Source of the DNA: Candidatus Pacearchaeota archaeon
GTDB lineage: Archaea > Nanobdellota > Nanobdellia > Pacearchaeales > GW2011-AR1
NCBI GenBank assembly: GCA_019659125.1
Contig: JAIFVX010000003.1
Span: 807 to 64,806 of the forward strand
Length of the DNA stretch: 64,000 nt
Direction: 5' to 3'
Below the pieces are notes generated by a model that saw nothing but the letters and a program-made list of their open reading frames with translations, was not told the DNA's origin and did not search any database. Shown here in pieces: positions 1-54,139 of the stretch; within the stretch, counting starts at the first letter, position 1, and every line of letters begins with the position of its first letter. Position numbers and translations under genes: made by a program.

Positions 1-491
1 TTGAATGAGGATATAATTCCTAGATTTTTCACCACGCAGAATACGCTTGCAAAGCTCATGAAGATGAGAACTCCCAGAAGGCTTGCGGCGATAAGAAGGA
101 ACAATATAATGACTGAGAATTGTCCTAGAAAAGGTAGGGTGAGAAAGGCTATCAAAGAAGAAAGGCCATACTGAGGCATAAGAAGTGCTGATCCTACGAT
201 AAGCGTCAGGGCTATGATAACGAAATTCCTCAATGTGTATTTTGAGTATGATAATGGATTTTTCCCAAATGCATAAAGGCCCATCATAATGGAAAGAAAG
301 AATGATCCGGCGACAAGAACTAATACGGTGAATATAATGAACCAGACTGTTGCCGTCAGGGAATTCTGCAGATGTGGCACAACTTTGTATGAGATGAACT
401 GCAAGAGACTAAGAACTCCAAACAAAAGAAGAGATGGAAGAATAAGCCAGGGATTTTTTACAAGATCCTTAAGAGATGATAGAAGTTTCAC
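1..491 (-). CDS. Multi-pass membrane protein, partial (3' end leaves window)
   Basis: Absent from ORF track. My minus-strand translation from GTG at 491 (GTGA overlap with the stop of the 488..868 gene) stays open to base 3: MKLLSSLKDLVKNPWLILPSLLLFGVLSLLQF...VIILFLLIAASLLGVLIFMSF. Several hydrophobic helices. Confidence 0.5.
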   Translation of the reverse strand, partial: MKLLSSLKDLVKNPWLILPSLLLFGVLSLLQFISYKVVPHLQNSLTATVWFIIFTVLVLVAGSFFLSIMMGLYAFGKNPLSYSKYTLRNFVIIALTLIVGSALLMPQYGLSSLIAFLTLPFLGQFSVIILFLLIAASLLGVLIFMSFASVFCVVKNLGIISSF

Positions 492-868
492 GATGATAGG
501 GATGACAAATATTCAGTGATTGCATCTCCCTTCACGAGCACGAAGATAATGGCCCCTACAAGAATGAAGAGGATCAATAAGAGAAATACAATCAAGACCA
601 TATTCTTTTTTCTTGGTTGACTCTGGAGTGGCCGTGAGATAACTGGGGGAGGAATCGACTGCGAAGGAGGAAGAGGATATTTTGATTTTTGGGTAACAGG
701 TTCCTGAGGAGATATGATTGTTGACGTCGTATCTCCTGTCAATGCCTTTGCCGCCTCTCGCACTTCCATAGCATTATATCCTGCATTGATAAAACTATTA
801 ACTGCATCATCAACGGAAGAACCTCGTTCCATCGCGTTCTTAAGTCCTGCAAGGATCTCATCCCTCAT
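488..868 (-). CDS. Small tail-anchored membrane protein of unknown function
   Basis: ORF with ATGA overlap to the RNase J stop. Soluble N-terminal ~45 aa domain, Pro-rich linker, one C-terminal TM helix. N-domain is paralogous to 29845..30108. Confidence 0.5.
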   Translation of the reverse strand: MRDEILAGLKNAMERGSSVDDAVNSFINAGYNAMEVREAAKALTGDTTSTIISPQEPVTQKSKYPLPPSQSIPPPVISRPLQSQPRKKNMVLIVFLLLILFILVGAIIFVLVKGDAITEYLSSLSS

Positions 869-2196
869 ATCGTTATGACCTTTCCATTATGCATGAGATG
901 AACTGTCTTGTTGGCCACGTAGCCCATTTCCTCGGCAAGATGAAGCCCTGCCATGAGCTTCTTCAAATCACCATGAGAAGGAATAACATGTTCTGGCCGT
1001 GTTAATTTTATGAGGTCTCGAAGGTCTTCCCTTCCCCCATGCCCTGAAACGTGCACATTATCGAAAATCCTCACTTGATGCTTCTTCAACCGCTTTTCTA
1101 ATTGATCCTTATTTTCCTCGTTGATTGGTGTGGGAATTGTTTTTGAGGAGAATATGATATGATCATTCTTGTCGAGCCTTAAAGGCAGTTGATTTCTTGA
1201 AATCCTGTCGAGAATGGATCCTGGCTCTCCTTGATGACCTGTGCAAACAACAAGATATTTCTTTTTCTCTTTGTTGACTTTGTTCAATACTTTTTCAAGC
1301 TGTTTCCTATAGGTAAATAATCTCACGTTGTTGATGAATGGGGCCTGGCCCACTCTTTTTGCTGCTGTCACGTACTTGTTCAGGCTTCTTCCTAAAAATA
1401 TGATCTCTCTGTTCAGTCTTCTGCCAAATTCAACAATACTTTTCAATCGTGCGATGTGGGAAGAGAACGTTGTGATGACTATCCCAGAATTATGATTGTC
1501 TGTGGTAAACAAGACATCCTCAAGCAAACCACGTGCAATCTTTTCTGATGGAGTTTTCCGGTCATCAGGAGCATATAAACAGTCAACAATCAATGCCTTT
1601 ACACCGATAGCAGCAAGTTCCTTGAGACGCTTATAATTTGGCTTATCTCCAAAGACTGGGGAATTATCGAGCTTGTAATCATTCGCATAGAGAACAATTC
1701 CTTCAGGTGTATGCACGGCGATCAGGGCAGACTGAATGGTGGAGTGAGTCATGTTCACAAACTCTACCTTATAGTTTTTCTTTCCTCGGGCGGTGTAGAC
1801 TCCATTCGGGTGAACTGATACGATTCTATTTTTTATCTTCTGTTTCGAATCTTCCATAAGCACCTTAAGCACTTCCATAGTGAATGAAGTCCCCACTACA
1901 TCCGCATTATAACGGTAAGAATTATAGGGAACTCCACCTACATGATCAAGGTGTGCATGCGATACTAGCAATGCTCTCACCTTATTTCTTAAGCCGTGTT
2001 TCTCGACATAGAGATCGTCAGGCAGTGCTCCGAGGTCACGCATACCTTTCTCAGTTGGCTCTCTTTCTCTTTCCGTAACGCCCACAATTGCTGGCAGAAA
2101 AAGCCCTGAATCAAATAGAATGACATCCTCTCCAACCTCGAGGGCAGTCATATTCTTTCCCACTTCACTGTAACCGCCAATTGCGTGTATCTTCAT
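865..2196 (-). CDS. rnj: Ribonuclease J (metallo-beta-lactamase / beta-CASP)
   Basis: HAHLDHVGG (HxHxDH) motif and archaeal RNase J-like length. Start moved to MKIHAIGGYSEVGKN (ATG 2196), which sits ~25 nt from a TATA-like box. Confidence 0.85.
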   Translation of the reverse strand: MKIHAIGGYSEVGKNMTALEVGEDVILFDSGLFLPAIVGVTEREREPTEKGMRDLGALPDDLYVEKHGLRNKVRALLVSHAHLDHVGGVPYNSYRYNADVVGTSFTMEVLKVLMEDSKQKIKNRIVSVHPNGVYTARGKKNYKVEFVNMTHSTIQSALIAVHTPEGIVLYANDYKLDNSPVFGDKPNYKRLKELAAIGVKALIVDCLYAPDDRKTPSEKIARGLLEDVLFTTDNHNSGIVITTFSSHIARLKSIVEFGRRLNREIIFLGRSLNKYVTAAKRVGQAPFINNVRLFTYRKQLEKVLNKVNKEKKKYLVVCTGHQGEPGSILDRISRNQLPLRLDKNDHIIFSSKTIPTPINEENKDQLEKRLKKHQVRIFDNVHVSGHGGREDLRDLIKLTRPEHVIPSHGDLKKLMAGLHLAEEMGYVANKTVHLMHNGKVITI

Positions 2197-2217
2197 ACAC
2201 AATTGAATCCCTGGTGG

Positions 2218-2250
2218 TTTAAATAGGTTTTTAGACATAAGGTATAAATA
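2218..2250. promoter_or_regulatory. Divergent pair of TATA-like boxes (tttaaata 2218-2225; tataaata 2243-2250)
   Basis: Each box is centred ~25-26 nt from the start codon of its gene (2196 minus strand, 2272 plus strand), implying leaderless transcripts. Confidence 0.5.
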
Positions 2251-2271
2251 GAAAGTTTCACCACAAGAGGG

Positions 2272-3120
2272 ATGGAACATAGAAAGCATCGTAACATTAC
2301 CTATACGATAATCGTTATCGTATTGATTTTACAAGTTGTTTCGTTTGTGACGCTTTCCTTTAAAATATCGCGACTTGAAGGAGATATCAGCTCCACACGG
2401 AAGAATCTTACCCAATCATTCACGGGTGCCCTCACGAGTTACGACCTTCAGAATCAGAAGAATTTCAATGATCTTTCACGGGCAGTTACCAATCAACAGG
2501 CAAGCTTCGAACAGGAGATAAGCATGCTAAAAGCATCTCAAGAAGATTTTTCAGGCGTCATCGAGAACTCTGTTAAAGGAGTAGTGAGCGTGCTCACTGA
2601 CAAGGCAGTAGGAACGGGATTTATTATCCATTCGTCGCTTTTTGAAAGCGTCATTGTCACGAACGAGCATGTCATTAGAGACGCGACCGACATACACGTG
2701 GTGACCTATGATAAACGTGAACTTCCGGCGGTTCTCGTGGGAAGTGATGCCATCCGAGATGTTGCTGTGCTGCAGGTGAAGGGAGAATACCCTTCGATTG
2801 ATATTGCCGATTCTGACAAGCTCCAAGTTGGGAATAAGGTTGTTGCCATAGGTAATCCTCTTGGCCTTTCTTTCAGCGTCACTGAGGGCATTGTTTCAGC
2901 ATTGCATCGAAGGGGTCCTAATGGTCTTAATGAATACATACAAACGGATGTTTCACTGAATCCAGGCAATTCAGGAGGACCGTTGATTGACACGACAGGA
3001 AAAGTTGTAGGAGTTAATAATTTCAAGGTGGGGAATGCTGAAAGCCTTGGATTTGCCCTTGAAAGCAACAGCTTAAAGGAAGTCGTCAACGATATTATGA
3101 ATAACACGGTGATAGTATGA
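2272..3120 (+). CDS. Membrane-anchored trypsin-like serine protease (HtrA/DegP family, no PDZ)
   Basis: N-terminal TM helix. Triad context TNEHVI / IRDVAVLQV / GNSGGPL. Confidence 0.8.
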   Translation: MEHRKHRNITYTIIVIVLILQVVSFVTLSFKISRLEGDISSTRKNLTQSFTGALTSYDLQNQKNFNDLSRAVTNQQASFEQEISMLKASQEDFSGVIENSVKGVVSVLTDKAVGTGFIIHSSLFESVIVTNEHVIRDATDIHVVTYDKRELPAVLVGSDAIRDVAVLQVKGEYPSIDIADSDKLQVGNKVVAIGNPLGLSFSVTEGIVSALHRRGPNGLNEYIQTDVSLNPGNSGGPLIDTTGKVVGVNNFKVGNAESLGFALESNSLKEVVNDIMNNTVIV

Positions 3121-3383
3121 AACTAAAGGCAAGTGCACGAGGGAAAAAGAGATATATTCTTCTTTCGATTGCTGACAAGGAAAAGGCAGAAAAGATATTT
3201 TTAGAATCGCTTGGAACTCTTGGGTGGGCAAAGGCACACCCTTTATTCATGAATCTTGGGAATAAGGTCGTCATCGTTGTTGATTCTGCATGCGTGGATG
3301 ATATCCGGGCAGCATGTGAGCTCTCCTCTGAAGATATTTCCATCATTCGAGTCTCAGGAACACTCAAGGGACTGAAAAGATGA
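3117..3383 (+). CDS. rnp2: RNase P protein component 2 (Pop5-like), short form
   Basis: ARGKKRYILL..., LGTLGWAKAHP and C-terminal RVSGTLKGLKR match the archaeal Pop5 pattern (RxKxRYI ... LGxxG ... SGTIK). Confidence 0.7.
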   Translation: MKLKASARGKKRYILLSIADKEKAEKIFLESLGTLGWAKAHPLFMNLGNKVVIVVDSACVDDIRAACELSSEDISIIRVSGTLKGLKR

Positions 3384-3589
3384 AAAAGAGAATTAAATCA
3401 TTTTTATTTGTATGGATAGTGTGTTTTGTAATAATATACGTAATAGTATATTCCTTTCCTGAAACAAGAGCAAATGATTTTGGTTTGTTTAGTCCTCCTG
3501 CCTATAAGTATGTTACTTTTGTTTTGATAGCTATTGGTTCAGTTATTTTGAGTTTGATAATTACGCGAGTAAAAAAGATACTTTCATAG
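3380..3589 (+). CDS. Small membrane protein (2 TM)
   Basis: ATGA overlap with the Pop5 stop. Two hydrophobic helices. Confidence 0.45.
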   Translation: MKKRIKSFLFVWIVCFVIIYVIVYSFPETRANDFGLFSPPAYKYVTFVLIAIGSVILSLIITRVKKILS

Positions 3590-3640
3590 ATTGAGATAGA
3601 AGAGCGAAACCTTTAATTAGATATTTCCATTATTCGCACA

Positions 3641-4120
3641 ATGAAACGAGGTCAAATTCATCTTTCTTTCGCGATGATATTCTCTATCATCGTTATCATT
3701 GCTACGGTTGCTGTGGCGTTCTATGTCGTCAACTATTTCCTCAAGACAAGCACGGGCGTGTCATGCAAACTGTTCCATAGAGATCTGCAGGACAGGATAA
3801 CCACTGCATGGAATGGAGAGATTACTCAAGACACTTTCAGCGAAGCAGCTCCTTCTGGCGTTTCCGCCGTTTGTATAGGATCCCTGAATGAAGGACCTTT
3901 AAACTCTCAGGATCGAGACAAATATCAAGCTATAAAGGAATATTTTCATAAGGGAAACTTCTTTTTCTATCCTACTGACTCTGAATGCGATTCAGGAAAT
4001 ATCGTCTATAACCTTGATCATATTGCAGCAACGCGGTTTTTCTGCAAGGATGTAGAGCAAGGAAAGATATCAATAACACTGAACAAAGGCCTTTCAGATT
4101 CTTTGGTGACTCTCTCATGA
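3641..4120 (+). CDS. Type IV pilin-like protein (class III signal peptide)
   Basis: N-terminus MKRGQ|IHLSFAMIFSIIVIIATVAVAFYV, i.e. a short basic stretch, G, then a long hydrophobic helix. TATA-like tttaatta at 3612-3619, ~25 nt upstream. Confidence 0.6.
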   Translation: MKRGQIHLSFAMIFSIIVIIATVAVAFYVVNYFLKTSTGVSCKLFHRDLQDRITTAWNGEITQDTFSEAAPSGVSAVCIGSLNEGPLNSQDRDKYQAIKEYFHKGNFFFYPTDSECDSGNIVYNLDHIAATRFFCKDVEQGKISITLNKGLSDSLVTLS

Positions 4121-5031
4121 GGAAAAAAGGATTTGAGTTCAGCTTCGGCTGGATATTCGCAATCATGGTTGGAGCAGTCGTCATCTCCCTGGCATTGTAT
4201 GCAACTTCAAAATTGATAAAGACCGAGCAGCAAGGGCAGAATGCAGAGCTTACAGTGCAACTTGGAACACTCCTTAGTCCTGCAGAAGCAACGATTGAAG
4301 AAAGTACCGTTATGCCTCTTGAATTTCCTAAGGAAAGTACCATTACCAGTCAATGCTCAAGTGCTGGAAGCTTTGGCTCCCAGAGGATTGAGGTTGATGA
4401 GCAAGGAGAAGGGGGAGGAGGTATCAGTTTCCCAAACAAATATATCTTCTCTGAATCACCGCTTCGAGGCAAAAATATTAGTGTTCTTTCTGAGCCTGTA
4501 AACATGCCATTCAAGGTGGCTGATATTCTTATTCTCTGGTCGCAACAACAGTATTGTTTTATCCAGCCTCCAGGAGAGATACAGGATGAGATTGAATCGT
4601 TCAAGCGAGGCATTAGTGTTGTTACATCAAGCTCTGCATGCCCAAAGGCAAGCATTAGCATATGTTTTACGGGAACATGCGATATTATGGTATCTCCTTC
4701 CACGAAGAGTGTTAAGAAGGGAACGCAAACAGTGTTCTATGATGACAGGTTTGGCAATGCACTCTTGTATGCGGCAATCTTTTCTGATGCAAACACCTAT
4801 GAATGTCAGGTCAAACGGCTCATGAAGCGAGCAAGCCATCTTTCTTCTCTCTATAGTTCTAAGGCGGACTACCTAAGTGCTCAAGGATGCAGCTCGACAT
4901 TAAGGGATGACTTAACAGTGTATGCTGCGCAACTCTCCTCAGCTTCCGATTCAAGAGAATTAGCACGCCTGGGTGTACTGGCAGCAGATCTTGAACATAC
5001 TAATGACAATATTCCATGTAAGCTCTTCTAG
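4117..5031 (+). CDS. Type IV pilin-like protein (class III signal peptide), Cys-containing
   Basis: N-terminus MRKKG|FEFSFGWIFAIMVGAVVISLALYA. ATGA overlap with the upstream gene. Confidence 0.6.
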   Translation: MRKKGFEFSFGWIFAIMVGAVVISLALYATSKLIKTEQQGQNAELTVQLGTLLSPAEATIEESTVMPLEFPKESTITSQCSSAGSFGSQRIEVDEQGEGGGGISFPNKYIFSESPLRGKNISVLSEPVNMPFKVADILILWSQQQYCFIQPPGEIQDEIESFKRGISVVTSSSACPKASISICFTGTCDIMVSPSTKSVKKGTQTVFYDDRFGNALLYAAIFSDANTYECQVKRLMKRASHLSSLYSSKADYLSAQGCSSTLRDDLTVYAAQLSSASDSRELARLGVLAADLEHTNDNIPCKLF

Positions 5032-5038
5032 AGCGCAA

Positions 5039-5509
5039 ATGCAGATCCAGCAAATGGCATTCGTCCTCGTAGCATTGCTCATCTTCTTTTCTATGGTTGC
5101 ACTTATCTATGCATCCTTGAGGATTTCCCATCTTAAGGGTCAGGCAGGGACGCTTGCACAGGCACAAGCACAGGAGCTTGCGAGGACGCTTGCATCAGCA
5201 CCTGAACTGCAAGGAAAATGTGACTCGTGCATCGATACTGATAAGGCACTTATATTAAAGGAAAAGCTGAACAGTGAATATAAGGGATTATGGAAAGTCA
5301 GCTATCTACGAATTGAGCGACTCTACCCCAATGCCCAGAACAGGGAGTGCACGCGAATGAACTATCCTGATTGCTCAACACTTACCCTTATTAATGGTAG
5401 TTTGGGGACTGCACAAGGAGCGTTTGTTAACCTTTGCAGGTATGTTGCTGAGAAGAAGTATATTCAGTGCGATATAGGGAAAATCTATGTTTCTCTGGAG
5501 GCCCCGTGA
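5039..5509 (+). CDS. Pilin-like / N-terminally anchored secreted protein
   Basis: Start moved to MQIQQMAFVLVALLIFFSMVALIYASL (ATG 5039, 8 nt after the upstream stop). The track start at 4973 would overlap the upstream gene by 59 nt. Confidence 0.5.
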   Translation: MQIQQMAFVLVALLIFFSMVALIYASLRISHLKGQAGTLAQAQAQELARTLASAPELQGKCDSCIDTDKALILKEKLNSEYKGLWKVSYLRIERLYPNAQNRECTRMNYPDCSTLTLINGSLGTAQGAFVNLCRYVAEKKYIQCDIGKIYVSLEAP

Positions 5510-5985
5510 GAGGGCAGGAAGAGGTTGCAGGATTTGTTGTTATTGTAGTTATTGTCTTAGTGATATCAGTCATTGTTCTTGGGGTAATGGTGAGACAGAG
5601 GCCAGAGCCATTAACGAACAGCCAGGATATCTATAATTTCCTTGAAGCAAGCCTTTCATACACAACATCATGTGCTACCAGCTTTGAGCCCGCTTATCTT
5701 ACTCTTGGTGAATTATTTGAAAAGTGCAGGTCGGGAAGTATTTGCATTTCAGGGAAGTCTGCATGCAGTGTTGCCAATGAAACGCTCAGAGGTATCGTAG
5801 GAGCAAGCTGGAACATAAGTTCTGGAAGCAGTGTCAGAGGATATAGGTTTGTAGCGCGCTATAAGACTAACACGAGTGATAGTGTCATTGTATCTCTTTC
5901 GCAAGGAAACTGCACAGGAAATTTCAAGGAGTCGGAATATCCTTATCCATATCCTATCAAAAGCTCATTTAGATTATGTTCCTAG
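5506..5985 (+). CDS. Type IV pilin-like protein (class III signal peptide)
   Basis: GTG at 5506 forms a GTGA overlap with the upstream stop and follows GGAGG (5497-5501). N-terminus V/M-RGQ|EEVAGFVVIVVIVLVISVIVLGV. Confidence 0.55.
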   Translation: MRGQEEVAGFVVIVVIVLVISVIVLGVMVRQRPEPLTNSQDIYNFLEASLSYTTSCATSFEPAYLTLGELFEKCRSGSICISGKSACSVANETLRGIVGASWNISSGSSVRGYRFVARYKTNTSDSVIVSLSQGNCTGNFKESEYPYPYPIKSSFRLCS

Positions 5986-6006
5986 ATATCTTTAAATATT
6001 ATCAAA

Positions 6007-6255
6007 TTGTCTATTTTTATGGCACATCAAGGCGATACTCTGGTTGAGCATGCATATTTACTCAATCATGATCCTTATATGGCGCAGGTTCTTTATGACC
6101 ACGTAGAAAGGGAAGGAGATAAGGATACGCTTAGCTTACTACGATTAAGCAGACTTCTAAAAGAAGAACTAGGAGATTGGGATGGAAATGCAGGAGTACC
6201 ATCCAGAATTTCACCTAAACCATCACCGTTAGATTCTTCAGCTCATTATTTATAA
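6007..6255 (+). CDS. Hypothetical protein
   Basis: ORF only, no recognisable motif. Likely true start is the internal MAHQGD. Confidence 0.3.
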   Translation: MSIFMAHQGDTLVEHAYLLNHDPYMAQVLYDHVEREGDKDTLSLLRLSRLLKEELGDWDGNAGVPSRISPKPSPLDSSAHYL

Positions 6256-6257
6256 TT

Positions 6258-6617
6258 CTAGAACGTAATATGAATGTTTACTGAGTCAACAATGATGACT
6301 GGCTTGAGCCTGTGCCTTTTTCCAGTCTTTTCAGCGATCATATCAATAAATCCGAATTTTTCAAGTAGTTTTACATCATCAACAACTGACTTAAAATCAC
6401 GCTGAACGAGCTTTGCAAGGTGGTACAATGATTTTGGATGATCGACTTTGATGGCATGAAGTATTTTTGCCTTCTCATTACTGAGGAGTTTTCGCACAGC
6501 ACTGATTCCCTCAAAATCATACGCGTTTGAGTCACGTGTAAATCGCCTGAAGAAGGTCGTAAACGTTCCTCTGTCGTCGGCAATTGTGATTTCGTGAGTT
6601 TTTGATCGTGCTGCCAT
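6258..6617 (-). CDS. Winged-helix DNA-binding protein (COG4190 / HVO_A0114-like)
   Basis: KILHAIKVDHPKSLYHLAKLVQRDFKSVVDDVKLLEKFGFI...KPVIIVDSVNIHITF matches the typical layout of this wHTH family. Confidence 0.55.
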   Translation of the reverse strand: MAARSKTHEITIADDRGTFTTFFRRFTRDSNAYDFEGISAVRKLLSNEKAKILHAIKVDHPKSLYHLAKLVQRDFKSVVDDVKLLEKFGFIDMIAEKTGKRHRLKPVIIVDSVNIHITF

Positions 6618-6853
6618 AGTATGGGTAAATATAGTACGTTTATAGAGACATGATGTATATAGAGTATTTATATGTATCTTTCCTCTATATATTGGGTATT
6701 ATACCATATATATTGCCTCATAGTACATTTTACCATTAAATGAGATATGCAAAAAGAAAGTGTTACTGCAGGCAGTGGTACCGAAAGCTTTATAAAGGAA
6801 TCAACAGCTAGTGAAAACACCGCCTGAAGAGAGGTGAAAAAGCGGGGAAAGCT

Positions 6854-6863
6854 TTTTAAATGA
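6854..6863 (+). promoter_or_regulatory. Candidate TATA box for the S-layer gene (alternative: ctttataaag 6788-6797)
   Basis: tttttaaatg lies ~160 nt upstream of GTG 7023, implying a long 5' UTR. A G-rich SD-like aaagggggtt sits just before the start. Confidence 0.35.
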
Positions 6864-7022
6864 TATATGATTGATGGTAGTAACTCTACTAAGCTTAGAG
6901 TACACATACTGGCTCACAAGGCCAGTACATCCAACGAGCTGCCCATTAAAAAGCAGCTTCCTTTATGAGGGACCCTGAGGGGTTGTTGCTAGTACAAAAG
7001 CTGAAAGGGGGTTTTAAGAAAA

Positions 7023-9641
7023 GTGATAAATTTCAAGAAAATTGCGTCTGTAGTAACGAGCACTTTGATGTTGAGTTCTACGGTGGCTTTGGCCGCTGCA
7101 GCTAACTACCCAGCACCTTTCGTACAGAATGGAGCTGGCAACGTAGCTATAGTTTATGGTTCAAACTTACCAGCAGGATCAACTGACTTAGTAGCTGTTG
7201 CCGAGATCCAAGGATATTTGGCAACACAGCTTGCAAGACAGACAGCAACAGGAGGAACGAGTGTAACTGGTGTTTCAGTTACAGGAGAGGCAGCACCATT
7301 ATTTACAGGAACAAAACTCTATGTAAATGATTCATTGAACGCTGTCAAGACTGTAATGACAAAGACCGAACTGCCAACCGTTTTGGCTTCTGGAACTTTC
7401 TCAGGTAACGTGGATGCAACCTATACTCAAACTATTGATATAGGATCAAACCCACAAGTTACTTTTGCAAAGCAACCAACAAGCTCAGACGACCCACAGT
7501 TTGGACTTACACTGTCAACGAGCACTGCAAACTATCTTTACAACACATCGGTTACCTTCAACAAAGCAATAAACTTCACTCATGCCGACTCCAAGGGAGC
7601 AGATATGACCTTGTTCGGACAGAAGTTTACCGTGGCTTCTTCAACAGATACAACCAACCTAGTGTTGTTGAAAACTGCTGAAAAGATAAGCCTTACCAGC
7701 GATGCACCTTCACAGAAGGTCACCATCGGAGGAAAGGAATACACGATCGAATTAATCTCTGCATCTGACACTTCAGCTACTGTACGAGTTACAGCAAGCG
7801 ATGGAACTTCGGAAACGAAGGAGGTTAATGAGAACAGCTCAAAGAAGGTCAACGGAATCACAGTAGCCGTAACGAACGCTGACGAGACTAACTTAAAGTT
7901 GTCCGCATCAGTAATCGCAGGCGCTGAGAAAGTGACGCTAACAGATGGAAGCGCAGTAGCAATTGGAGAAGACTCCAAAGTAGTTGATGGAACGAAAGTT
8001 ACTCTAACAGGAGGCACTACGGCCACTACCAAAATAACGGTAAGTACCTATGCATCCGACTCAGACCATGACGCACTATTGCCGGGTCAAGAGTTTGTCA
8101 GCCCTACATTCGGAACCTTTAAGATAGACTTCGCTAGCCTTAATGAGCCGGAAAACAGCTCTGCTCGAGAGAACATTAAAATTGTCGCAAGTGGAGATGA
8201 TAAAATGATTGTTGACTTTATGCCAGGATACGCATCAAGCAACAAAGCAATCCAGTTCGCTATCAACAAGAGTACAGGTAGCAGTGGATTCCAACTTCAA
8301 TCCGACAGTGATGGACATAACATCACCGTACAGGAGAGAAGGAAGGCTTTCAAGAACGATTACATCGTTCTTGGAAATGAGGAAAGCGGACGCTTACTAA
8401 AAGTCCAGACCATCACAAACCAGACATCTGGTTACAACCAGGATAAAGTCAGCATGACTGATGTCTTCACAGGAGACACCTATGATGCTACATTAACTGG
8501 TGAAGGATCTGGAAGTATTGTTGTTGGAGGAAAGTCGTATAACCTCATCTATAACGGTACGCCGTCAGATGACTCAAACTTTGTACGATTGAACTATCCA
8601 GACAGTACAGGAAGCGGGGATGTAGTTTTGTTACCAACTTTGAGAACATCAAAGGGAGCAAAAGTTGCATTCTACAAGCCTATCAACAACTTATCGATTG
8701 ATGACTGGGATGGAGACGGAACTGATGCAGCAACGTTGAAATTCCCTAACGGGGATGGATACACGGATGTAGCAACAGTTGCAGGTCTTAACGCAGCAGG
8801 TATCGGAATGACTATTGGAGGCAGCGCGCTTAACGCGTCTCTTCCAGCAGTAACGGCAACTGTAGGTAGATTTACCTACAACTTTACGTATTCCGGTCCT
8901 AACCAAACAACTATTTACTTGCTTTCTCCTGACGGAGGAAACATTGTATCGCCAGCTATTCAGCTTATCGAGGAAAAAGATGACAACTCACAATTCCACG
9001 GAATGGTTGTCACCCTTGAGGGAGCAGGAAGCGGTGATCAAGGAGTAGGAGTTAACGACGTCTCAAGAACCTGGCAAAACGACGCTACCTGGGACCAAAT
9101 TACACTTGCTAGCAATAGCAAGATCAGTAAGGAGGCAGACCTTTACGGTACTATCGTAAGCATAGATTCTTCCGACTCAGACCAGAAATCTACAACCATC
9201 AGTTACCCTGATGAACAAGTTTACGCTAACATATACGCAGCTGAAAAGACTGCAGATATTTCAGGCGGAACAACTTCATCATCTGGAGGATCTGTACGAG
9301 AACTTGGCTCAGTCCTAGTGACTGACAGCGAGGCCTCATCAGTGTCTTCAAAGAATCTGATTGTTGTTGGTGGAAGTTGCGTTAACAAAGTTGCTGCTGA
9401 ATTGCTTGGAGGCTCTCTTTGCGGAGCAGACTTCGAGTCAAAGACAAGCGTTGGATCTGGTTCATTCCTGATTCAGTCGTTCAGTCGATCAAGCGGCGCT
9501 GTTGCAACACTCGTAGCAGGTTACAATGCAGCTGACACAGTCAATGCTGCACGATTCCTAGACACGCACACGGTAGATACTACTGTAGGCAAGAAGTACA
9601 AGGGATCATCTGCAACAAGTGCTGACCTAGTAACAACGTAA
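7023..9641 (+). CDS. S-layer protein (Methanococcales MJ0822-type)
   Basis: GTG start. Signal peptide ...STVALAAAANYPAPFVQNG, Thr/Ser/Gly-rich body, C-terminal LIVVGGSCVNKVAAELLGG ... LVAGYNAADTVNAARFL typical of this family. Confidence 0.7.
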   Translation: MINFKKIASVVTSTLMLSSTVALAAAANYPAPFVQNGAGNVAIVYGSNLPAGSTDLVAVAEIQGYLATQLARQTATGGTSVTGVSVTGEAAPLFTGTKLYVNDSLNAVKTVMTKTELPTVLASGTFSGNVDATYTQTIDIGSNPQVTFAKQPTSSDDPQFGLTLSTSTANYLYNTSVTFNKAINFTHADSKGADMTLFGQKFTVASSTDTTNLVLLKTAEKISLTSDAPSQKVTIGGKEYTIELISASDTSATVRVTASDGTSETKEVNENSSKKVNGITVAVTNADETNLKLSASVIAGAEKVTLTDGSAVAIGEDSKVVDGTKVTLTGGTTATTKITVSTYASDSDHDALLPGQEFVSPTFGTFKIDFASLNEPENSSARENIKIVASGDDKMIVDFMPGYASSNKAIQFAINKSTGSSGFQLQSDSDGHNITVQERRKAFKNDYIVLGNEESGRLLKVQTITNQTSGYNQDKVSMTDVFTGDTYDATLTGEGSGSIVVGGKSYNLIYNGTPSDDSNFVRLNYPDSTGSGDVVLLPTLRTSKGAKVAFYKPINNLSIDDWDGDGTDAATLKFPNGDGYTDVATVAGLNAAGIGMTIGGSALNASLPAVTATVGRFTYNFTYSGPNQTTIYLLSPDGGNIVSPAIQLIEEKDDNSQFHGMVVTLEGAGSGDQGVGVNDVSRTWQNDATWDQITLASNSKISKEADLYGTIVSIDSSDSDQKSTTISYPDEQVYANIYAAEKTADISGGTTSSSGGSVRELGSVLVTDSEASSVSSKNLIVVGGSCVNKVAAELLGGSLCGADFESKTSVGSGSFLIQSFSRSSGAVATLVAGYNAADTVNAARFLDTHTVDTTVGKKYKGSSATSADLVTT

Positions 9642-9710: not shown

Positions 9711-10241
9711 ATGAGATCAATAGAGACTACGGAATTGAAGGAAGAACGGCAGAAAAAGAAAGCCAGGCTTATCAGTGCATTGCTTCTTCTTATGCTTTTA
9801 GGAAGCGTTGCAGGATATGCCTTCCTCTCACAAGGCGATACGGCTGCGCCTGCTGCTCCTCCAGCCCAAAATGGACAATTTACTACTGACTATCAGGGGA
9901 CACAGCTTGCATTTACAAGCCCTCCTAGCTCTGTAACAGCCATTCAAGCTCCCTATGTAACCATAAATCAATATGCTGGAAAGCCGCTCTATATAGTGTC
10001 CGATAGTGAAGCAATCACCTATGAAATATCTTCAACATTGGGAAGGTATGTCGCCCGCTGGCAGCCTGCATGTTATGGAAACTGCACTGAAGACCTGCCA
10101 AGCAAGGACTGCACGGAAAATCTTATTGTGTGGAACCAGTCTGATGAAAACAAGATCTCTCAACAAGACTCATGCGTTTTCATTGATGGAGATATTAGAG
10201 CCGTCGACGCATTTTTGTATAAAGTCTTTGGAATCCAGTAG
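9711..10241 (+). CDS. N-terminally anchored secreted protein, unknown function
   Basis: Basic N-terminus plus one TM helix (ARLISALLLLMLLGSVAGYAFL). Cys-containing ectodomain. Confidence 0.5.
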   Translation: MRSIETTELKEERQKKKARLISALLLLMLLGSVAGYAFLSQGDTAAPAAPPAQNGQFTTDYQGTQLAFTSPPSSVTAIQAPYVTINQYAGKPLYIVSDSEAITYEISSTLGRYVARWQPACYGNCTEDLPSKDCTENLIVWNQSDENKISQQDSCVFIDGDIRAVDAFLYKVFGIQ

Positions 10242-10275: not shown

Positions 10276-10914
10276 ATGAAGAAAGTCGTTAAAAAAGAAA
10301 ATAGCTCAAGGAGAAGGTTATACTGGATTGTTGGAACAATTGTCGTCCTTGTTGCCGTTTATCTTGCCACATCATATATCATCAGGGGCATGACTCAGTT
10401 CACCTATGAAGGCTTGACCTTCACGAAAGAGACCCAGTATGGCGTTCCCTTTTTCCACCACTATTATTACTTTACAGACTCCCATGGGCAGCTGACAAAA
10501 TACAACCTTTACTTGAGGAATGATCCTCGTACCAATACTGTCCCAGTCAGTGGAAGAGTCCTTTTCAATTTCAATAGAAAAATCTATCTAGGGATTAATA
10601 TCTCGGATCTCGCAGCATGCAGTAACAGCTCGCTTGCGGTCGCCGAGCTCTCATCATTCCTTACCGATAATGAGTTTCAGGTAACAGCAGGAGTACCTGA
10701 CAAGCAACAGGCACAAGAACTGAACCAGACCTATGTATCATGCACTCAATTCTTGGGGAATACAGTCATTATGCTTGAGGGTGGGGAAAACAGTTCCATT
10801 GTAGGAAAGAATGGGTGCTATAAACTCACCGTTTCGCAATGTAAGATCCTTCCCGTCGTGGAAAAGTTCAAAATCCGCGCGTTGCTCGATTCGAGAAACA
10901 CTACTTCTTCCTAA
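10276..10914 (+). CDS. N-terminally anchored secreted protein, unknown function
   Basis: TM helix LYWIVGTIVVLVAVYLATSYII. TATA-like tttaaaat at 10248-10255, ~25 nt upstream. Confidence 0.5.
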   Translation: MKKVVKKENSSRRRLYWIVGTIVVLVAVYLATSYIIRGMTQFTYEGLTFTKETQYGVPFFHHYYYFTDSHGQLTKYNLYLRNDPRTNTVPVSGRVLFNFNRKIYLGINISDLAACSNSSLAVAELSSFLTDNEFQVTAGVPDKQQAQELNQTYVSCTQFLGNTVIMLEGGENSSIVGKNGCYKLTVSQCKILPVVEKFKIRALLDSRNTTSS

Positions 10915-11503
10915 GCAACTCTATAGCTGGAGGGATAAAAGAAAGGATAATAACGATAAGTGTAACAAGTGAGAGATGCCCCTTGATTATCGGGATTGTT
11001 CCAAAGAAATATCCTCCAAATAAGAAGAGGCCCACCCATGTTATTCCTCCGAAGACATTATATCTTAAGAATTTTTTGTATTCCATGCTTCCCAGACCTG
11101 CGACGAATGGTGCAAAGGTCCTTATAATGGGCACAAACCGTGCCAGGACAATTGTCTTGGCTCCATGCTTATGATAGAAGGCATTTGTTTTGTCGATGTA
11201 TTCCTTCTTAAGCTTTGCTATCACTTTCTTCCCGAACGTATTTCCAACCCAGTAATTGACGGTGTCGCCTCCTATAGCTGCAAGAGAAAGCAGCACAAAC
11301 GCTGCTAGCACGACTCCTGGTCGCGCCGCAAGGGTGGCGCCTGCAACAAAGATAATTGAATCTCCCGGAAGAAACGGGGCAAATACAAGGCCAGTCTCAC
11401 AGAAAATAACAAGGATAAGAACACCAAGAGCTACATAGAGCCCATGTCCTGCGATAAAAGAATTAAGATAGGTATCTGTGTGAATGAGAAAGTCGAGAAT
11501 CAT
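10901..11503 (-). CDS. DedA family (VTT domain) membrane protein
   Basis: FAPFLPGDSIIFVAGA ... NYWVG ... FVPIIRTFAPFVAG pattern. Confidence 0.75.
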   Translation of the reverse strand: MILDFLIHTDTYLNSFIAGHGLYVALGVLILVIFCETGLVFAPFLPGDSIIFVAGATLAARPGVVLAAFVLLSLAAIGGDTVNYWVGNTFGKKVIAKLKKEYIDKTNAFYHKHGAKTIVLARFVPIIRTFAPFVAGLGSMEYKKFLRYNVFGGITWVGLFLFGGYFFGTIPIIKGHLSLVTLIVIILSFIPPAIELLRKK

Positions 11504-12021
11504 GATCTCCTCGTTATATCTGTAACAATGTTCATGACGTCCGTATATATGGGGATTTCACGAATCCTGAAGAGGAAAACGTTGGCAAACCATATGAGGA
11601 TAAGAAGAATCGTGCTTCCAAAGTACCAGAAGAGCTCGTGAGCAGTATCAAAGTATTGTGATCCTTGACGAGCAAGATGTGTGAATATAATGATCCGCAA
11701 GACATTCAAGAATAGGAATGAAAGGATAATGAAAAGTAGGCTGTAGAACCTTTTACGTGACTTCATAGGGGTTGATAAGTTCAAAACAAAGAGAAGATAG
11801 TAGGCTGCGCCTGCAATACAGGCAGGGATAAGCTCGATATAGATGCCTTGAACGAATATCGTTGCAGTCCCTTTAATAAGAATTGCTGATGGTAATCCAA
11901 GGGTTACAAGATGAAGCGTTATGGGGGAGAAAACTGCATAAATGACAGCAAGATTAAAAAGCGCAAGAAGTACCAAGGTCATGTATCGAGTAAGAAGGTA
12001 GATCATTTCCTTATCTTTCAT
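11500..12021 (-). CDS. Short exosortase/archaeosortase-family membrane protein (candidate)
   Basis: Polytopic, 173 aa. Candidate catalytic residues in family order: IPACIAG (Cys), LNVLRI (Arg), DTAHELF (His). Transcribed immediately downstream of (3' to) a surface-protein gene with a C-terminal sorting-type tail. Confidence 0.55.
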   Translation of the reverse strand: MKDKEMIYLLTRYMTLVLLALFNLAVIYAVFSPITLHLVTLGLPSAILIKGTATIFVQGIYIELIPACIAGAAYYLLFVLNLSTPMKSRKRFYSLLFIILSFLFLNVLRIIIFTHLARQGSQYFDTAHELFWYFGSTILLILIWFANVFLFRIREIPIYTDVMNIVTDITRRS

Positions 12022-12051: not shown

Positions 12052-13689
12052 TTAACTTCGCTGTGAGAGCCGTACTGCAACAACAATGATGAGGACGATA
12101 AGAACAACGTTAATTATTCCAATAACCCAGATTAATGGATTGCCTGAAAGTGATCCTAATGAGAACCCTTGTGCTCCTGCAATTGAAACAACAACATCCT
12201 TTGATTGTGTTGATGCCCCTGATTGTGCATCAATGGTGAATGTCTTGTCTCCTGAAGCTGCATTGTCTACCGTGAACTTAAGTGTAATATCCTTTGATTC
12301 TCCAGCAGAAAGCGTTACAACTCGGTCTGAGATTGAATCCAGACTTGCCCAAGCATCGTAACCCTTTACATTGACAATTTCAGTCTGAGAGCTTGTTCCC
12401 CTGTTTGTCAGGGTCACTTTGACAGTCATAGGCTGCCCTGCCTTCGCATCTGACTCAAGAGAAGCGCTGATAACAACAGGGTTTGTTCCAGATCCTGAAC
12501 CGGTTCCCGTTGTTGCGCATCCAGCTACTTTTAATGGAACTATTGTCGCCTCATCTGAAGATTCTCGATAGACCCCATTGTTGTAATCGTAGTCTGCTCG
12601 AAGCTCAATGTTGTAGGTCTTGTCCGAAGCTGATCGAGGGACATTGAAGGTGAATCTGATGTTTGAACGGTCTCCCTGGTCAAGATCCTGTCGTATTTCC
12701 CGTACAAGGTCAACGCCAAGTTCTCTGTTCACTGCAGTTACTCGTGTCTGGTCCTGGTCCTCATCGCCGACATTCACCGCATCAAAGCTTAAATCAACAG
12801 AGTCACCGCACGTTGCAGTGTTTGGATTAAGAGATACATCGGTGAATGCAATGAACTTGCCCTCATCGCTTTCCTGGTCTATTGAGATTGAATCGTAAAT
12901 CTGATTTGTGTCAAAATCCTCTGCACGGTCAACACACATGTTTGACTCTCCAAGCTTTGTGCTGTATGCCTTTACTGTAAGTTTGTAGTCGCCAGAGGAT
13001 ATGTCTGCAGGAACCGTGAACTCAAAGGTGGCTGTCTCTCGGTCTCCGTCATTGATTCTTCCCAAACTAATAGTTTCCTCATCAGTGTTTGAGAAGTCGA
13101 GGTCTCCAACCTGGTTTCGTCCTTCTGAATCAAACAATCCAAGCTTTACATCAACATCAGATATATCCTTGTCTCCCGTGTTCCTTACTCGAACTTCTAT
13201 GGTAATCTTGTCAAGAGGCTGCCAGTCCTGGTCGTCGCCCTCTCCCTCATTGCTAATATCTATTGAATCGAGCGTCAGGTTTCCACCTGCAGGCCCGCTT
13301 CGGCAGAAGGTGTTTTCCGTCGTTAAGCCAAGAACATTAGATTCTATTAGCGTTGAATTAGCGGCTGTGTCCGTTCCTTTTGCCTTGACCGTAGCAGTCT
13401 GAGAGCCAAATCGAGTGTCAGTTGAAAGTTTCGTTACACTAATTAATGTGGAACTGTTAGAAGAAAGAGATGCAATAGTAGTAGGTGAGATCTGCACCCC
13501 AGATACTTCGAAAGTTATGCCTGTCACAGTTCCATTTCCAGTGTTTGTTACATTAATGCTTGTAAGGCTCGTGCTGTTAGTTAGTGTTGAAGGTCCTACA
13601 AGCTGAAGCGATAGTGCTGCGCTTGAAAGACTAAGAGTAAGAACTGCTAAAACCGTGAATGCGAATAATGAAAGTAATGTGCGTTTCAT
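12052..13689 (-). CDS. Secreted CARDB-repeat surface protein with C-terminal TM plus basic tail
   Basis: Start moved to ATG (MKRTLLSLFAFTVLAVLTLSLSSA). CARDB-like repeats (ITIEVRVRNTGDKDISDVDVKLGLFD). Many NxS/T sequons. C-terminus ...SGNPLIWVIGIINVVLIVLIIVVAVRLSQRS. Confidence 0.65.
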   Translation of the reverse strand: MKRTLLSLFAFTVLAVLTLSLSSAALSLQLVGPSTLTNSTSLTSINVTNTGNGTVTGITFEVSGVQISPTTIASLSSNSSTLISVTKLSTDTRFGSQTATVKAKGTDTAANSTLIESNVLGLTTENTFCRSGPAGGNLTLDSIDISNEGEGDDQDWQPLDKITIEVRVRNTGDKDISDVDVKLGLFDSEGRNQVGDLDFSNTDEETISLGRINDGDRETATFEFTVPADISSGDYKLTVKAYSTKLGESNMCVDRAEDFDTNQIYDSISIDQESDEGKFIAFTDVSLNPNTATCGDSVDLSFDAVNVGDEDQDQTRVTAVNRELGVDLVREIRQDLDQGDRSNIRFTFNVPRSASDKTYNIELRADYDYNNGVYRESSDEATIVPLKVAGCATTGTGSGSGTNPVVISASLESDAKAGQPMTVKVTLTNRGTSSQTEIVNVKGYDAWASLDSISDRVVTLSAGESKDITLKFTVDNAASGDKTFTIDAQSGASTQSKDVVVSIAGAQGFSLGSLSGNPLIWVIGIINVVLIVLIIVVAVRLSQRS

Positions 13690-13773
13690 TTTATTGTTGT
13701 AACTGGTCAATTACACTACTTTATAAACTTTTCTGTTCTGGAGAACAAACATTATTTAAATGAAATACTCCTT

Positions 13774-18374: not shown

Positions 18375-19112
18375 TTACTCCGTGTTGTATAGAAACATGA
18401 TATAATATCCTGCCCCTATAAGGCTTGCAAGCTGAATTGCTGACAGGCCTAGAATAAGTGGATTAAGTGGCTTTATAAATTCTATTGCAATTCTGAATGT
18501 AAGGTATCCTATAACAAAGAGCTTGAACCTCACTCCAGGCTTTAATCTCCATTTTCTTTCAATCCCAAGAATAACAAGCCAGAGAATTCCAAGAAATACA
18601 ATTTCGTAAAGAGAAGTAGGATGACGTGGAAGACCATCTCCCTGGTCAAATGCCCAGGGGACTGAAGAGACAATGCCCACTGTTCTATCACTAACACCTG
18701 TGAGAAAACAACCAATCCTTCCAATAATCATTCCTAATATTAACGGATATGTGAACAAGTCTCCTGAAGGTCTTTTTTCTCCAATGATTTTCTTGGTTAT
18801 CTCTACTCCGATAATTGCTCCCAGAATGCCTCCAACGATCGTCTTTCCCTGGATGTAGTAGAGGAAAGAAGAAGGGTGGAAAAATGAAGCAGGATCTTCA
18901 AGGCTTGCGAGTAACCGTGAAAAAAGCAGTGCTCCAATAGCTCCTCCTAGAATGATGCTTTCCCGATTAGAAAAATGAAGCGGATCCCTCTGCTTCTTCT
19001 GAAGATGGAAATAAAAAACAAATGCGAAGAAAAATGCAAGAATTTCAAACACGGAATGAGAAGGAATAGCAACACTTCCTATATGGAAGTTAATAGGGAA
19101 CTTCATTTCCAT
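18375..19112 (-). CDS. lgt: Prolipoprotein diacylglyceryl transferase (Lgt)-like membrane protein
   Basis: GRIGCFLTG ... PWAFDQGDGLPRHPTSLYE resembles the Lgt signature (GR[IL]GNF ... HPxxLYE). Polytopic. Confidence 0.6.
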   Translation of the reverse strand: MEMKFPINFHIGSVAIPSHSVFEILAFFFAFVFYFHLQKKQRDPLHFSNRESIILGGAIGALLFSRLLASLEDPASFFHPSSFLYYIQGKTIVGGILGAIIGVEITKKIIGEKRPSGDLFTYPLILGMIIGRIGCFLTGVSDRTVGIVSSVPWAFDQGDGLPRHPTSLYEIVFLGILWLVILGIERKWRLKPGVRFKLFVIGYLTFRIAIEFIKPLNPLILGLSAIQLASLIGAGYYIMFLYNTE

Positions 19113-34039: not shown

Positions 34040-34225
34040 ATGAATATTCATAGTAAAAAGATAGTGCAATACATCTCCAAAGAAGAGGTAGTAACTAGTT
34101 CTGAAATAGCAAAACTTTTGAAGGTCTCATGGAATACTGCTGAGAAATATCTTCTTGAACTTCTTATCGAGGGAAAAGTCAGGCGTATAAAAAAAGAGGG
34201 GGTTAACATATGGCTCGGAAAATGA
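34040..34225 (+). CDS. Small winged-helix DNA-binding protein
   Basis: 61 aa. VTSSEIAKLLKVSWNTAEKYLLELLIEGKVRRI. Confidence 0.55.
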   Translation: MNIHSKKIVQYISKEEVVTSSEIAKLLKVSWNTAEKYLLELLIEGKVRRIKKEGVNIWLGK

Positions 34226-34971
34226 AACGGGGGCAGATGGCGATATGGATTATCCTCGCCATTGTGTTAGTGGGGACAATGATCTTGTTCTTCACCGTCG
34301 AAAGAAAGGTAAACACGACGCAACCAGAGATACTCAGCCCTGAACTTCAAGTCAGGCAATGCACCAAGGAGGCAGTGAATTCCGTTCTTGCACAAACGCT
34401 TCCGCATGGAGGATTTGTCGAGCCGAGAAATACAAAGCTCTACAAGGGAATCAATATATCTTACCTATGCGACAACATAGGATTCTACAAGCCTTGCATC
34501 AATCAGCATCCTCTTCTCATCAAGGAAATGAACGCTGAGATCAAGGAGAAGATCACCCCTGAACTTCAGACATGCTTCTCTATTATTGATGGAGATTATG
34601 CCTCTCGAAATGCGGAGTTGGAGACTGGTCCATTAAGCTTTGATGTGAGACTCGCTCCTGGAAGAGTGTATGTAGATATCAATAGAAGTATGACTATTAC
34701 ACAGAGAGGATCAAGCAGGACATTCTCATCATACCAGGTTGAAATCCCTAGCCCTGCATATGATCTTGGCTCTATCGCTTCAGAGATTGCAAGTCAGGAA
34801 GCAAAATACTGCTACTTTGAGTATGTTGGATACATGCTTCTTTACCCTTCATTCAGGATATCAAAGACAGCATTACCTGATTCCACTAAGATTTACACTA
34901 TCACTGACAAAAAATCAGGAGATGCTATGAATATCGCCATCAGGAGTTGTGCGATACCTCAAGGAATATGA
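34222..34971 (+). CDS. Type IV pilin-like protein (class III signal), paralog of 38780..39586
   Basis: ATG 34222 forms an ATGA overlap with the wHTH stop (alternative ATG 34210). MKRGQ|MAIWIILAIVLVGTMILFF. Conserved Cys pattern shared with its paralog. Confidence 0.6.
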   Translation: MKRGQMAIWIILAIVLVGTMILFFTVERKVNTTQPEILSPELQVRQCTKEAVNSVLAQTLPHGGFVEPRNTKLYKGINISYLCDNIGFYKPCINQHPLLIKEMNAEIKEKITPELQTCFSIIDGDYASRNAELETGPLSFDVRLAPGRVYVDINRSMTITQRGSSRTFSSYQVEIPSPAYDLGSIASEIASQEAKYCYFEYVGYMLLYPSFRISKTALPDSTKIYTITDKKSGDAMNIAIRSCAIPQGI

Positions 34972-53545: not shown

Positions 53546-54139
53546 CTAGAACAAGCCACCCTTAAGGATCTCTAACTTGAATGAGGTTGCCCCGATGATA
53601 TCTCCCGAAGCCTTATCCTGGACATCGACAAATACTTTCTGTGTACAACTGGCCGTGCCTTTAGGAACATTCACGTCTATGTTCGCAAGTGCAACAGAAA
53701 AGTCCTTGAGTGCATCAAACTGTAAGAATTGATCAAGACGGGTTTCAAACAATGCTTTTGTCTTGGCCACTCCCAGCTTGTTGGCGCTGATGCAGTTGCT
53801 TCCAGTAGCTTCCTCAAGCGAGAGCTTGTATTGCAATTGATCTCGTGCATTGATTCTGGCTCCATCAGGATTCCTCGCTCCTAGGCCAATCGTCAAACTG
53901 CTGTCAGGTCGCACCGTTGCAGTCCTATCCTTGCCTAGGTTGACAATGACATCATCACTATCATCAGTAAATAAGGAGGCAATTGCATTCTGGACCTTGC
54001 TTTGCAATACATCGACTGTTGCCGTCGTTCCTGTAAATATATTCTTAATGAGCACAAGACCGAGGATAAGCATTGACATTGCCAAGACAACAATAACGAT
54101 CGTACTTACAGAAAGCTCAATCGCTGCCTTTCTTCTCAT
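53546..54139 (-). CDS. Pilin-like protein (class III signal-like N-terminus)
   Basis: MRRKA|AIELSVSTIVIVVLAMSMLILGLVLI. Confidence 0.5.
   Translation of the reverse strand: MRRKAAIELSVSTIVIVVLAMSMLILGLVLIKNIFTGTTATVDVLQSKVQNAIASLFTDDSDDVIVNLGKDRTATVRPDSSLTIGLGARNPDGARINARDQLQYKLSLEEATGSNCISANKLGVAKTKALFETRLDQFLQFDALKDFSVALANIDVNVPKGTASCTQKVFVDVQDKASGDIIGATSFKLEILKGGLF

Follow-up and report, generated by a model that had tools for sequence, protein, structure and literature searches.

A conserved four-gene set with class III-type N-termini, linked to the S-layer locus in Pacearchaeota and related DPANN archaea

Sets of pilin-like proteins encoded side by side are familiar from bacteria, where GspH-I-J-K belong to type II secretion and FimU-PilV-PilW-PilX go with the PilY1 adhesin. 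Archaeal loci of the type IV filament (TFF) systems, which in DPANN archaea include the system 1, Aap-like and 4A types, are recognised by an ATPase and a platform gene encoded at the same site and combine class III proteins with adhesin-like giants (Makarova 2016; Sivabalasarma and Albers 2026). In archaellum loci, TFF components are associated with S-layer-like accessory proteins. Among the closest known counterparts of the proteins considered here are the EppA substrates of Methanococcus maripaludis, in which the leader ends in G and is followed by Q at +1 (PMC3875500). These EppA/DUF361 pilins (EpdA-C, MMP1283, MMP0600/0601) have a short basic leader ending in Gly, a Gln at +1 and a hydrophobic helix; they are ∼130-300 aa long, and several different pilin-like genes lie side by side, often without linkage to an ATPase or platform gene (PMC3875500). 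Here we describe four consecutive genes, designated g1 to g4, at positions 3641-5985 of a 64,000-nucleotide stretch of DNA from a Candidatus Pacearchaeota archaeon (assembly GCA_019659125.1, contig JAIFVX010000003.1), hereafter called the window. The four genes form a lineage-wide quartet with class III-type N-termini and novel, cysteine-rich ectodomains, and the quartet is linked to the S-layer locus. No published description of the g1-g4 cluster was found in a literature search.

The gene content of the window is archaeal (ribosomal proteins, FtsZ, aIF5A, RNase J and Spt5), and g2 is 100% identical to KW805_04575, a "hypothetical protein" of Candidatus Pacearchaeota archaeon at NCBI. For the comparative analysis, 80 related loci from species-representative genomes were drawn from 250 genomes encoding a g2 relative, and five further loci were found via exact protein sequence; locus-level counts refer to 86 loci (∼1.3 Mb), in each of which open reading frames (ORFs) were called and assigned to families by phmmer. 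The g1-g4 set is restricted to DPANN archaea labelled as Pacearchaeota or Woesearchaeota, with g2 relatives in at least 250 species-level genomes. When clustered at 90% identity, the g2 family comprises 126 homologues, all of them from DPANN archaea and all "hypothetical", and an exhaustive phmmer search with g4 yielded 816 clusters (50% identity), of which 566 had E ≤ 1e-10. A word-indexed homologue search with g1 returned four proteins, too shallow a set for a structure model; by locus, the g1 family is present in 80/86. It is also the most variable of the four, with a mean column identity of 39% versus 44-50% for the other three. The quartet is complete, in the same order and on the same strand, in 69 of the 72 loci with enough flanking sequence, its members are single-copy, and in most loci the genes overlap or abut. 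The members of the quartet in the window and the promoter-like element before it are as follows, with a slash at the junction between the leader and position +1:

3641-4120, plus strand: g1, 159 aa, MKRG/QIHLSFAMIFSII..., 4 Cys (from the ORF list)
4117-5031, plus strand: g2, 304 aa, MRKKG/FEFSFGWIFAI..., 8 Cys (from the ORF list)
5003-5509, plus strand: g3, 168 aa, MTIFHVSSSRA/QMQIQQMAFVLVA..., 6 Cys (start revised, from ORF 4973-5509)
5506-5985, plus strand: g4, 159 aa, GTG start, MRG/QEEVAGFVVIV..., 6 Cys
3612-3619, plus strand: TATA-box-like TTTAATTA, ∼25 nt 5′ of the g1 ATG (read from the sequence)

The first-pass annotation of this DNA had reported four consecutive plus-strand genes with pilin-type N-termini, and all four ORFs are present, together with the ATGA overlap of g1 and g2 (4117-4120), the GTGA overlap of g3 and g4 (5506-5509) and the GGAGG preceding the latter (5497-5501). 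Its start for g3, at the ATG at 5039, had to be abandoned. All 78 of the g3 homologues have [GAS]-Q-[LMI]-K-I-Q-Q ahead of the hydrophobic core, and because initiation at 5039 cuts this junction motif off, the start is placed at the upstream ATG at 5003, which restores SSRA/QMQIQQMAF. Read from there, the protein begins MTIFHVSSSRAQ..., with a leader of the same length and style as in two of the related loci, L045 (MKHLPVSSSRAQIK) and L022. The 8-nt gap that had been proposed ahead of 5039 measures 7 nt (5032-5038) and vanishes with the revised start, g3 now overlapping g2 by 29 nt. Across the loci, the stop codon of a quartet gene precedes the +1 codon of its downstream neighbour by a median of 19-22 nt, so that the stretch encoding each leader overlaps the gene before it or adjoins it, an arrangement that would imply coupled expression of the quartet. 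The cysteines remarked on earlier in all four ectodomains number 4, 8, 6 and 6 in g1-g4, an even count in every case, and would be consistent with disulfide-bonded extracellular domains. Going by general archaeal promoter architecture, the TATA-like element would give a leaderless or near-leaderless transcript; the sigma-70/terminator scan of the window is not applicable to an archaeon. An 18-nt sequence, AGATATTTCCATYATTCG, occurs twice, at 3332-3349 and 3619-3636; the first copy stops 31 nt short of the start codon of a 69-aa membrane ORF (3380) and the second 5 nt short of that of g1 (3641). It may represent a shared promoter or initiation element.

N-terminal alignments revealed one layout in all four families: a basic leader that differs in length and sequence between members, a near-fixed junction, and then at least ∼20 uncharged hydrophobic residues. 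The g4 family shows it most clearly, with K/R at -3 (70/77) and -2 (69/77), G, A or S at -1 (39, 33 and 5 sequences) and Q at +1 (77/77), followed by E+2 (76/77) and E+3, G+6 and F+7 (each 77/77). Members of the g3 family have K/R at -2 (67/78), A, G or S at -1 (37, 37 and 4), Q at +1 (78/78) and K at +3 (76/78), while those of g1 have G or A at -1 (45 and 20 of 69) and Q at +1 in 51 of 69, after which the sequence runs x-x-[LIM]-S-F-G-M-I-F-S-I. In g2 the junction reads KKG/FEFSF[GA]W[IL]FA or, in one sub-clade, [GA]/YLQISFAWLFA. Thus, the +1 Gln of EppA-type pilins is invariant in g3 and g4, found in most g1 sequences (51/69), and replaced by F or Y in g2. The layout is that of an archaeal class III signal: the basic leader has K/R at -2 and ends in G or A, seldom S, and the predicted cleavage site is followed by an uncharged hydrophobic N-terminal helix of ∼20 residues; AlphaFold places N-terminal helices at residues 10-52 of g2 and 3-30 of g4. 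The class III-type N-termini originally proposed for all four proteins are therefore borne out, with conserved K/R, G/A/S at -1, Q at +1 (F/Y in g2) and a hydrophobic helix. Position by position, conservation of the motif across ∼78 orthologues per family is far beyond chance.

In profile-profile comparisons, the g1-g4 families are alike over their first 35-60 residues only. The hhalign probabilities for the N-terminal profiles are 97% for g1-g2, 92-94% for g1-g4, 82% for g3-g4 and 51-55% for g1-g3. A further family, here called cIII, has the junction K-G/Q-V-T-I-F-I-I and an N-terminal profile in common with g1 and g4 by hhalign; the two additional class III proteins that had been placed at 34222 and 38780 belong here, as the ORFs starting at 34210 and 38753 carry the conserved motif. 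Two neighbouring signal-anchor proteins, d1 and d2, served as controls. Their N-termini are without a conserved G/A at -1, and they reach hhalign probabilities of 2-20% against the class III families. The argument rests on this family-level conservation and not on pattern matching, since a loose class III regular expression matches 16 ORFs in the window, unrelated ones included. By their sequences, the proteins constitute four to six predicted class III-signal families that are missed by current pilin models.

The second defining feature of the quartet is its surroundings. A minus-strand gene for a winged helix-turn-helix (wHTH) protein and then an S-layer gene follow it in 49 of the 50 loci with enough flank, and the d1/d2 pair comes next in 42 of 44. 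In the window these neighbours are:

6258-6617, minus strand: wHTH protein of the HVO_A0114 family (Pfam PF25212, E 6.4e-16), convergent with g4 and divergent from the S-layer gene
7023-9641, plus strand: S-layer protein, 872 aa, with a Sec-type signal and no membrane anchor (PF05124 S_layer_C, 35.1 bits versus a cut-off of 23.9)
9711-10241, plus strand: d1, N-terminally anchored, 3′ of the S-layer gene, no class III motif
10276-10914, plus strand: d2, N-terminally anchored, d1 paralogue, no class III motif

The paralogy of d1 and d2 is supported by an hhalign probability of 97% over 168 columns. A C-terminal transmembrane (TM)-like stretch is absent from all 54 S-layer homologues, and because the S-layer protein is thus without a membrane anchor of its own, d1 and d2 are candidate S-layer tethers. 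No account was found in the literature searched of such a quartet in fixed pairing with a main S-layer gene and with neither an ATPase nor a platform gene linked to it, the nearest remark being the one on accessory proteins of archaellum loci. A review of archaeal S-layers has little or no information for these newer phyla. The differences from TFF loci are plain: the definition of a TFF locus calls for an ATPase and a platform gene in the same place, whereas the quartet has neither in 85 of 86 loci, and the partner of the quartet is a main S-layer family protein (PF05124) where TFF loci have an accessory Ig-fold protein.

Several other features of the S-layer locus were observed. Two direct repeats resembling a BRE (transcription factor B recognition element)/TATA box, GAAAGCTTTATAAAGGA at 6783-6799 and GAAAGCTTTTTAAATGA at 6847-6863, lie 64 nt apart between the wHTH and S-layer genes and may be tandem or divergent promoters. 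About 5.5 kb downstream of the quartet is a gene for a pacearchaeosortase (11500-12021, minus strand; NCBIfam NF033505, 176 bits versus a cut-off of 80). It is adjoined by a gene for a 552-aa CARDB-domain protein (12052-13710, minus strand) with a C-terminal TM helix and basic tail, which is a likely sorting substrate of the pacearchaeosortase. This pair, together with a DedA/VTT gene, is kept downstream of the S-layer locus in ∼40 loci.

The quartet is also part of a larger array. In 43 related loci (about half), genes for class III proteins and giant Cys-rich proteins precede g1 in the same orientation, and the complete array (cIIIa, GiantA, cIIIb, GiantB_N and GiantB_C) makes up, with the quartet, a tight run of ∼10 genes; in locus L045, for example, it runs from 427 to 9525, with the g1 start at 9489. 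The corresponding genes in the window are located elsewhere:

34210-34971, plus strand: cIIIa, class III protein
34947-38783, plus strand: GiantA, 1278 aa, Cys-rich, with a Gly/Ala-rich hydrophobic middle
38753-39586, plus strand: cIIIb, class III protein
39559-41112, plus strand: GiantB_N, 517 aa
41171-41794, plus strand: lipobox protein, 207 aa, starting with a lipobox-like ...AAGLSGC
41836-43962, plus strand: GiantB_C, 708 aa

No Pfam domain was found in the giant proteins. GiantB_N and GiantB_C are the two parts of a giant of the GiantA kind, divided around the 207-aa lipobox protein, and GiantA resembles the two types joined into one protein. The segment 34210-43962 is the detached half of an ancestral array, which this genome carries in two pieces. 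The first-pass annotation had counted seven class III proteins in the window and called their density unusually high; the density is high because six of the seven belong to this one ancestral array of ∼10 genes, so that only the seventh is left outside the explanation. That candidate (53546-54139, minus strand; MRRKA/AIELSVSTIVIVV, 197 aa) has no family match and two matches among the fetched loci, and a gene for a Laminin_G_3 (LamG-like) membrane protein lies near it (54745-55581, minus strand). The window also encodes a bacterial-type Lgt, a prolipoprotein diacylglyceryl transferase, in this archaeon (18375-19112, minus strand; PF01790, 91 bits).

With moderate confidence, we read the quartet as a minor-pilin-like set of a lineage-specific surface apparatus tied to the S-layer, for which cleavage and assembly are proposed. 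The operon design is that of a minor-pilin core set, with four families in fixed order (69/72 loci) and overlapping genes. Like GspH-I-J-K and FimU-PilVWX, the quartet has four pilin-like proteins per operon, one of them about twice as large as the others, and homology confined to the N-terminal helix; the neighbouring giant of more than 1200 aa likewise parallels the large surface protein (>1000 aa, PilY1) of minor-pilin operons. The likeness is one of design only, as there is no sequence or structure similarity, the cleavage motif is of archaeal type and machinery is not linked. The following model is thus drawn by analogy to the bacterial sets and does not imply homology to them. A prepilin peptidase (signal peptidase III, SPIII) encoded elsewhere would remove the leaders, and the four mature proteins would associate via their N-terminal helices, in roughly equal amounts, into a short heteromeric pilin bundle. 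Such a bundle could cap, prime or form a short pilus-like stalk across the pseudo-periplasm and the S-layer, with the giant proteins carried on the stalk as adhesins by which the cell attaches to its host. Any assembly ATPase and platform that took part would be encoded at unlinked sites. Pacearchaeota are strongly host-attached, and ultrasmall cells bear pili-like appendages.

Several findings weigh against this reading, beginning with the assembly machinery. The window and the 86 loci were screened for ATPase Walker A motifs and A24-like G-x-G-D-x-K membrane proteins, and by size and multi-TM ORF clustering. As the first-pass annotation had suggested for the surroundings of the quartet, no linked ATPase, platform or peptidase gene was found, with locus L028 as the sole exception: neither an SPIII peptidase nor a TFF ATPase nor a platform gene turned up in the ∼1.3 Mb around the 86 loci apart from the L028 PilB. 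No A24-family peptidase was detected within ±10 kb of the 86 loci, and the co-localised T2SSE/FlaI and T2SSF/FlaJ genes by which TFF loci are recognised were likewise absent, there being no platform gene in the window or the 86 loci. In L028, from a Pacearchaeota genome, a gene for a 609-aa T2SSE/PilB ATPase (7489-9318, minus strand; PF00437, E 2.7e-109) lies divergently beside g1, and the closest relatives of its product are PilB proteins of bacteria of the candidate phyla radiation (CPR; Patescibacteria). The other PilB copies inspected (L086 10001-11821 and L087 5101-6954, representing L087/L088) stand alone among housekeeping genes, with no T2SSF platform or A24 peptidase gene beside them. 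L086, annotated as Pacearchaeota, is syntenic with the window, which has no PilB gene between aIF5A and FKBP. Because its relatives are of the CPR type and the copies in Pacearchaeota are solitary, the L028 ATPase is not regarded as the general assembly motor. DPANN archaea in general encode TFF systems; for Pacearchaeota in particular the literature search returned nothing on such systems and no statement on SPIII peptidases.

The signal sequences themselves depart from the described type in some respects. The +5 Glu of EppA substrates and bacterial pilins is missing, position +5 being occupied by V (g4), Q (g3) or S (g1), with acidic residues at +2/+3 (g4) and +2 (g2) instead, and certain g4 leaders are just 3-4 residues long. 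Besides lacking Glu at +5, the quartet differs from the EppA pilins in having no match to Class_IIIsignal/DUF361, unrelated Cys-rich ectodomains, and a fixed composition tied to an S-layer gene; no Epd-type locus was seen. Nor do curated models recognise the proteins: no Pfam, NCBIfam or PHROGs match at threshold was obtained for g1-g4 or for 43 g1 members, and the Pfam models for Class_IIIsignal and archaeal Pilin_N gave none even at E ≤ 1 for the window proteins and at E ≤ 0.01 for the 43 g1 members. Profile searches of the Protein Data Bank (PDB) with all four family alignments returned nothing significant, an N-terminal match to PilE1 (E 0.55) being dismissed as noise-level. A viral or defence origin of the quartet is unsupported, the PHROGs scan having given no match.

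Confident AlphaFold models were obtained for g2 and g4. In the g2 model (pLDDT 87.8, pTM 0.82), the helix at 10-52 leads into a domain rich in beta-strands (64-207), and a bundle of helices (215-297) forms the C-terminal part. The g4 model, for which the alignment was built from the exhaustive phmmer matches, has a pLDDT of 94.1 and shows the helix at 3-30 followed by an alpha/beta domain ending in a 4-stranded sheet. Of the elements expected in a pilin fold, the models thus show the N-terminal helices and, in g4, the C-terminal sheet. Foldseek searches of the PDB with both models found no solved pilin and nothing significant, a further point against pilin-like proteins; the best matches were to a DnaK substrate-binding domain (E 0.076) and to ribosomal uS3 (E 0.017), and no TM-score exceeded 0.33. 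Pilin head domains are highly diverse, so the Foldseek result is not decisive for the pilin fold. Since neither model matches a solved pilin, the pilin-like character rests on the N-terminus, and the head domains of g2 and g4 are, as modelled, predicted new folds relative to the PDB.

Of the other explanations, the one that survives best, though we think it rather unlikely, is that the quartet is an S-layer tether or spacer, a Cys-rich pseudo-periplasmic complex that is held in the membrane by its N-terminal helices with or without leader cleavage, needs no ATPase-driven assembly and acts much as SlaB does in holding SlaA in Sulfolobales. In the two-component SlaA/SlaB S-layers (stalk and canopy), as in the quartet locus, an anchor-less S-layer protein is encoded beside small membrane-anchored proteins; SlaB differs in being a single, C-terminally anchored protein without homology to the quartet, and the link between quartet and S-layer is genomic only. 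The adjacency in 49/50 loci is what such a complex would predict, some partner must hold an S-layer protein that is unanchored in all 54 homologues, and both the unlinked assembly machinery and the un-pilin-like ectodomains of g2 and g4 fit as well. However, d1 and d2, which are co-directional with the S-layer gene and directly 3′ of it, are the more obvious anchors, whereas the quartet forms a transcription unit of its own, convergent with the wHTH gene, and in half of the genomes it is joined to the giant-protein array and not to the S-layer operon. A plain anchor would also leave the invariant G/A/S-Q junction, with its variable leader, unexplained.

It is also conceivable, but in our judgement unlikely, that the genes encode a full adhesive type IV pilus in which one protein, for example g1, is the major pilin and the rest are minor pilins, assembled by remote canonical TFF machinery, with the S-layer proximity reflecting a surface gene island. 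The class III-type N-termini, the position of g1 as first gene and most variable family, the frequent separation of archaeal pilins from their machinery (PMC3875500) and the pili-like appendages on ultrasmall host-attached cells would all agree with this. The single-copy state, similar conservation and fixed order of the four genes point instead to a stoichiometric complex and not to a fast-evolving, often duplicated major pilin; in addition, Foldseek gave no pilin-fold match and the machinery was not located in the screened loci. A broader proposal, about as doubtful, is that of a pilin-derived DPANN envelope organelle of a kind not described before, made up of the quartet, cIIIa/cIIIb, the Cys-rich polytopic giants and the S-layer locus. 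It would form a stalk without a linked TFF ATPase or platform, possibly with the giants as its base, and would tether the S-layer and display adhesins.

Quite improbable is the view that g1-g4 are ordinary Sec signal-anchor (type II) proteins whose K/R-G/A-Q junction is kept for some other purpose such as helix capping or oligomerisation. The failure of curated class III families to match at threshold, the lack of a peptidase gene nearby and the 16 window ORFs picked by the loose regular expression, unrelated ones among them, would be in keeping with it. What this view does not account for is that two families, with 77-78 orthologues each, never deviate from G/A/S at -1 and Q at +1, residues that are also common in three further families, while the leader varies freely, and that the true signal anchors d1 and d2 have neither the motif nor the profile similarity. 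Some g1 members also touch a class III model. The N-terminal 35 residues of g1 match TIGR04205 below threshold (E 7.9e-4, 19 bits versus a cut-off of 65), and 4 of 43 g1 members match it weakly. TIGR04205 (archaeosortase D/PIP-CTERM-associated) is the only curated model that touches g1 and, like g1, describes a class III protein beside an archaeosortase system, but its members are ∼67 aa long and have no ectodomain. Finally, bindosome-like substrate-binding proteins that carry a class III signal and feed a transporter are highly improbable, since, widespread as such signals are on non-pilin binding proteins of archaea, the library scans detected no solute-binding domain and the syntenic neighbourhoods contain no ABC transporter, so that neither mark of a bindosome is found.

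One observation concerns the region upstream of the quartet in a related genome, where the RNase J orthologue (L003 2537-5248, minus strand; GCA_053534515.1) is 903 aa long and contains an intein with a LAGLIDADG endonuclease. The RNase J copy in the window (865-2289) is intein-free.

Class III signal proteins as such are already known; the g1-g4 families lie outside every curated model searched. Pacearchaeota and their relatives are abundant, uncultured and host-attached archaea with minimal genomes, and the construction of their envelope and their means of staying attached to a host are poorly understood. The quartet provides concrete candidates for an attachment or envelope apparatus in these organisms, and it raises the question of whether pilin-like proteins can work without a linked assembly motor.

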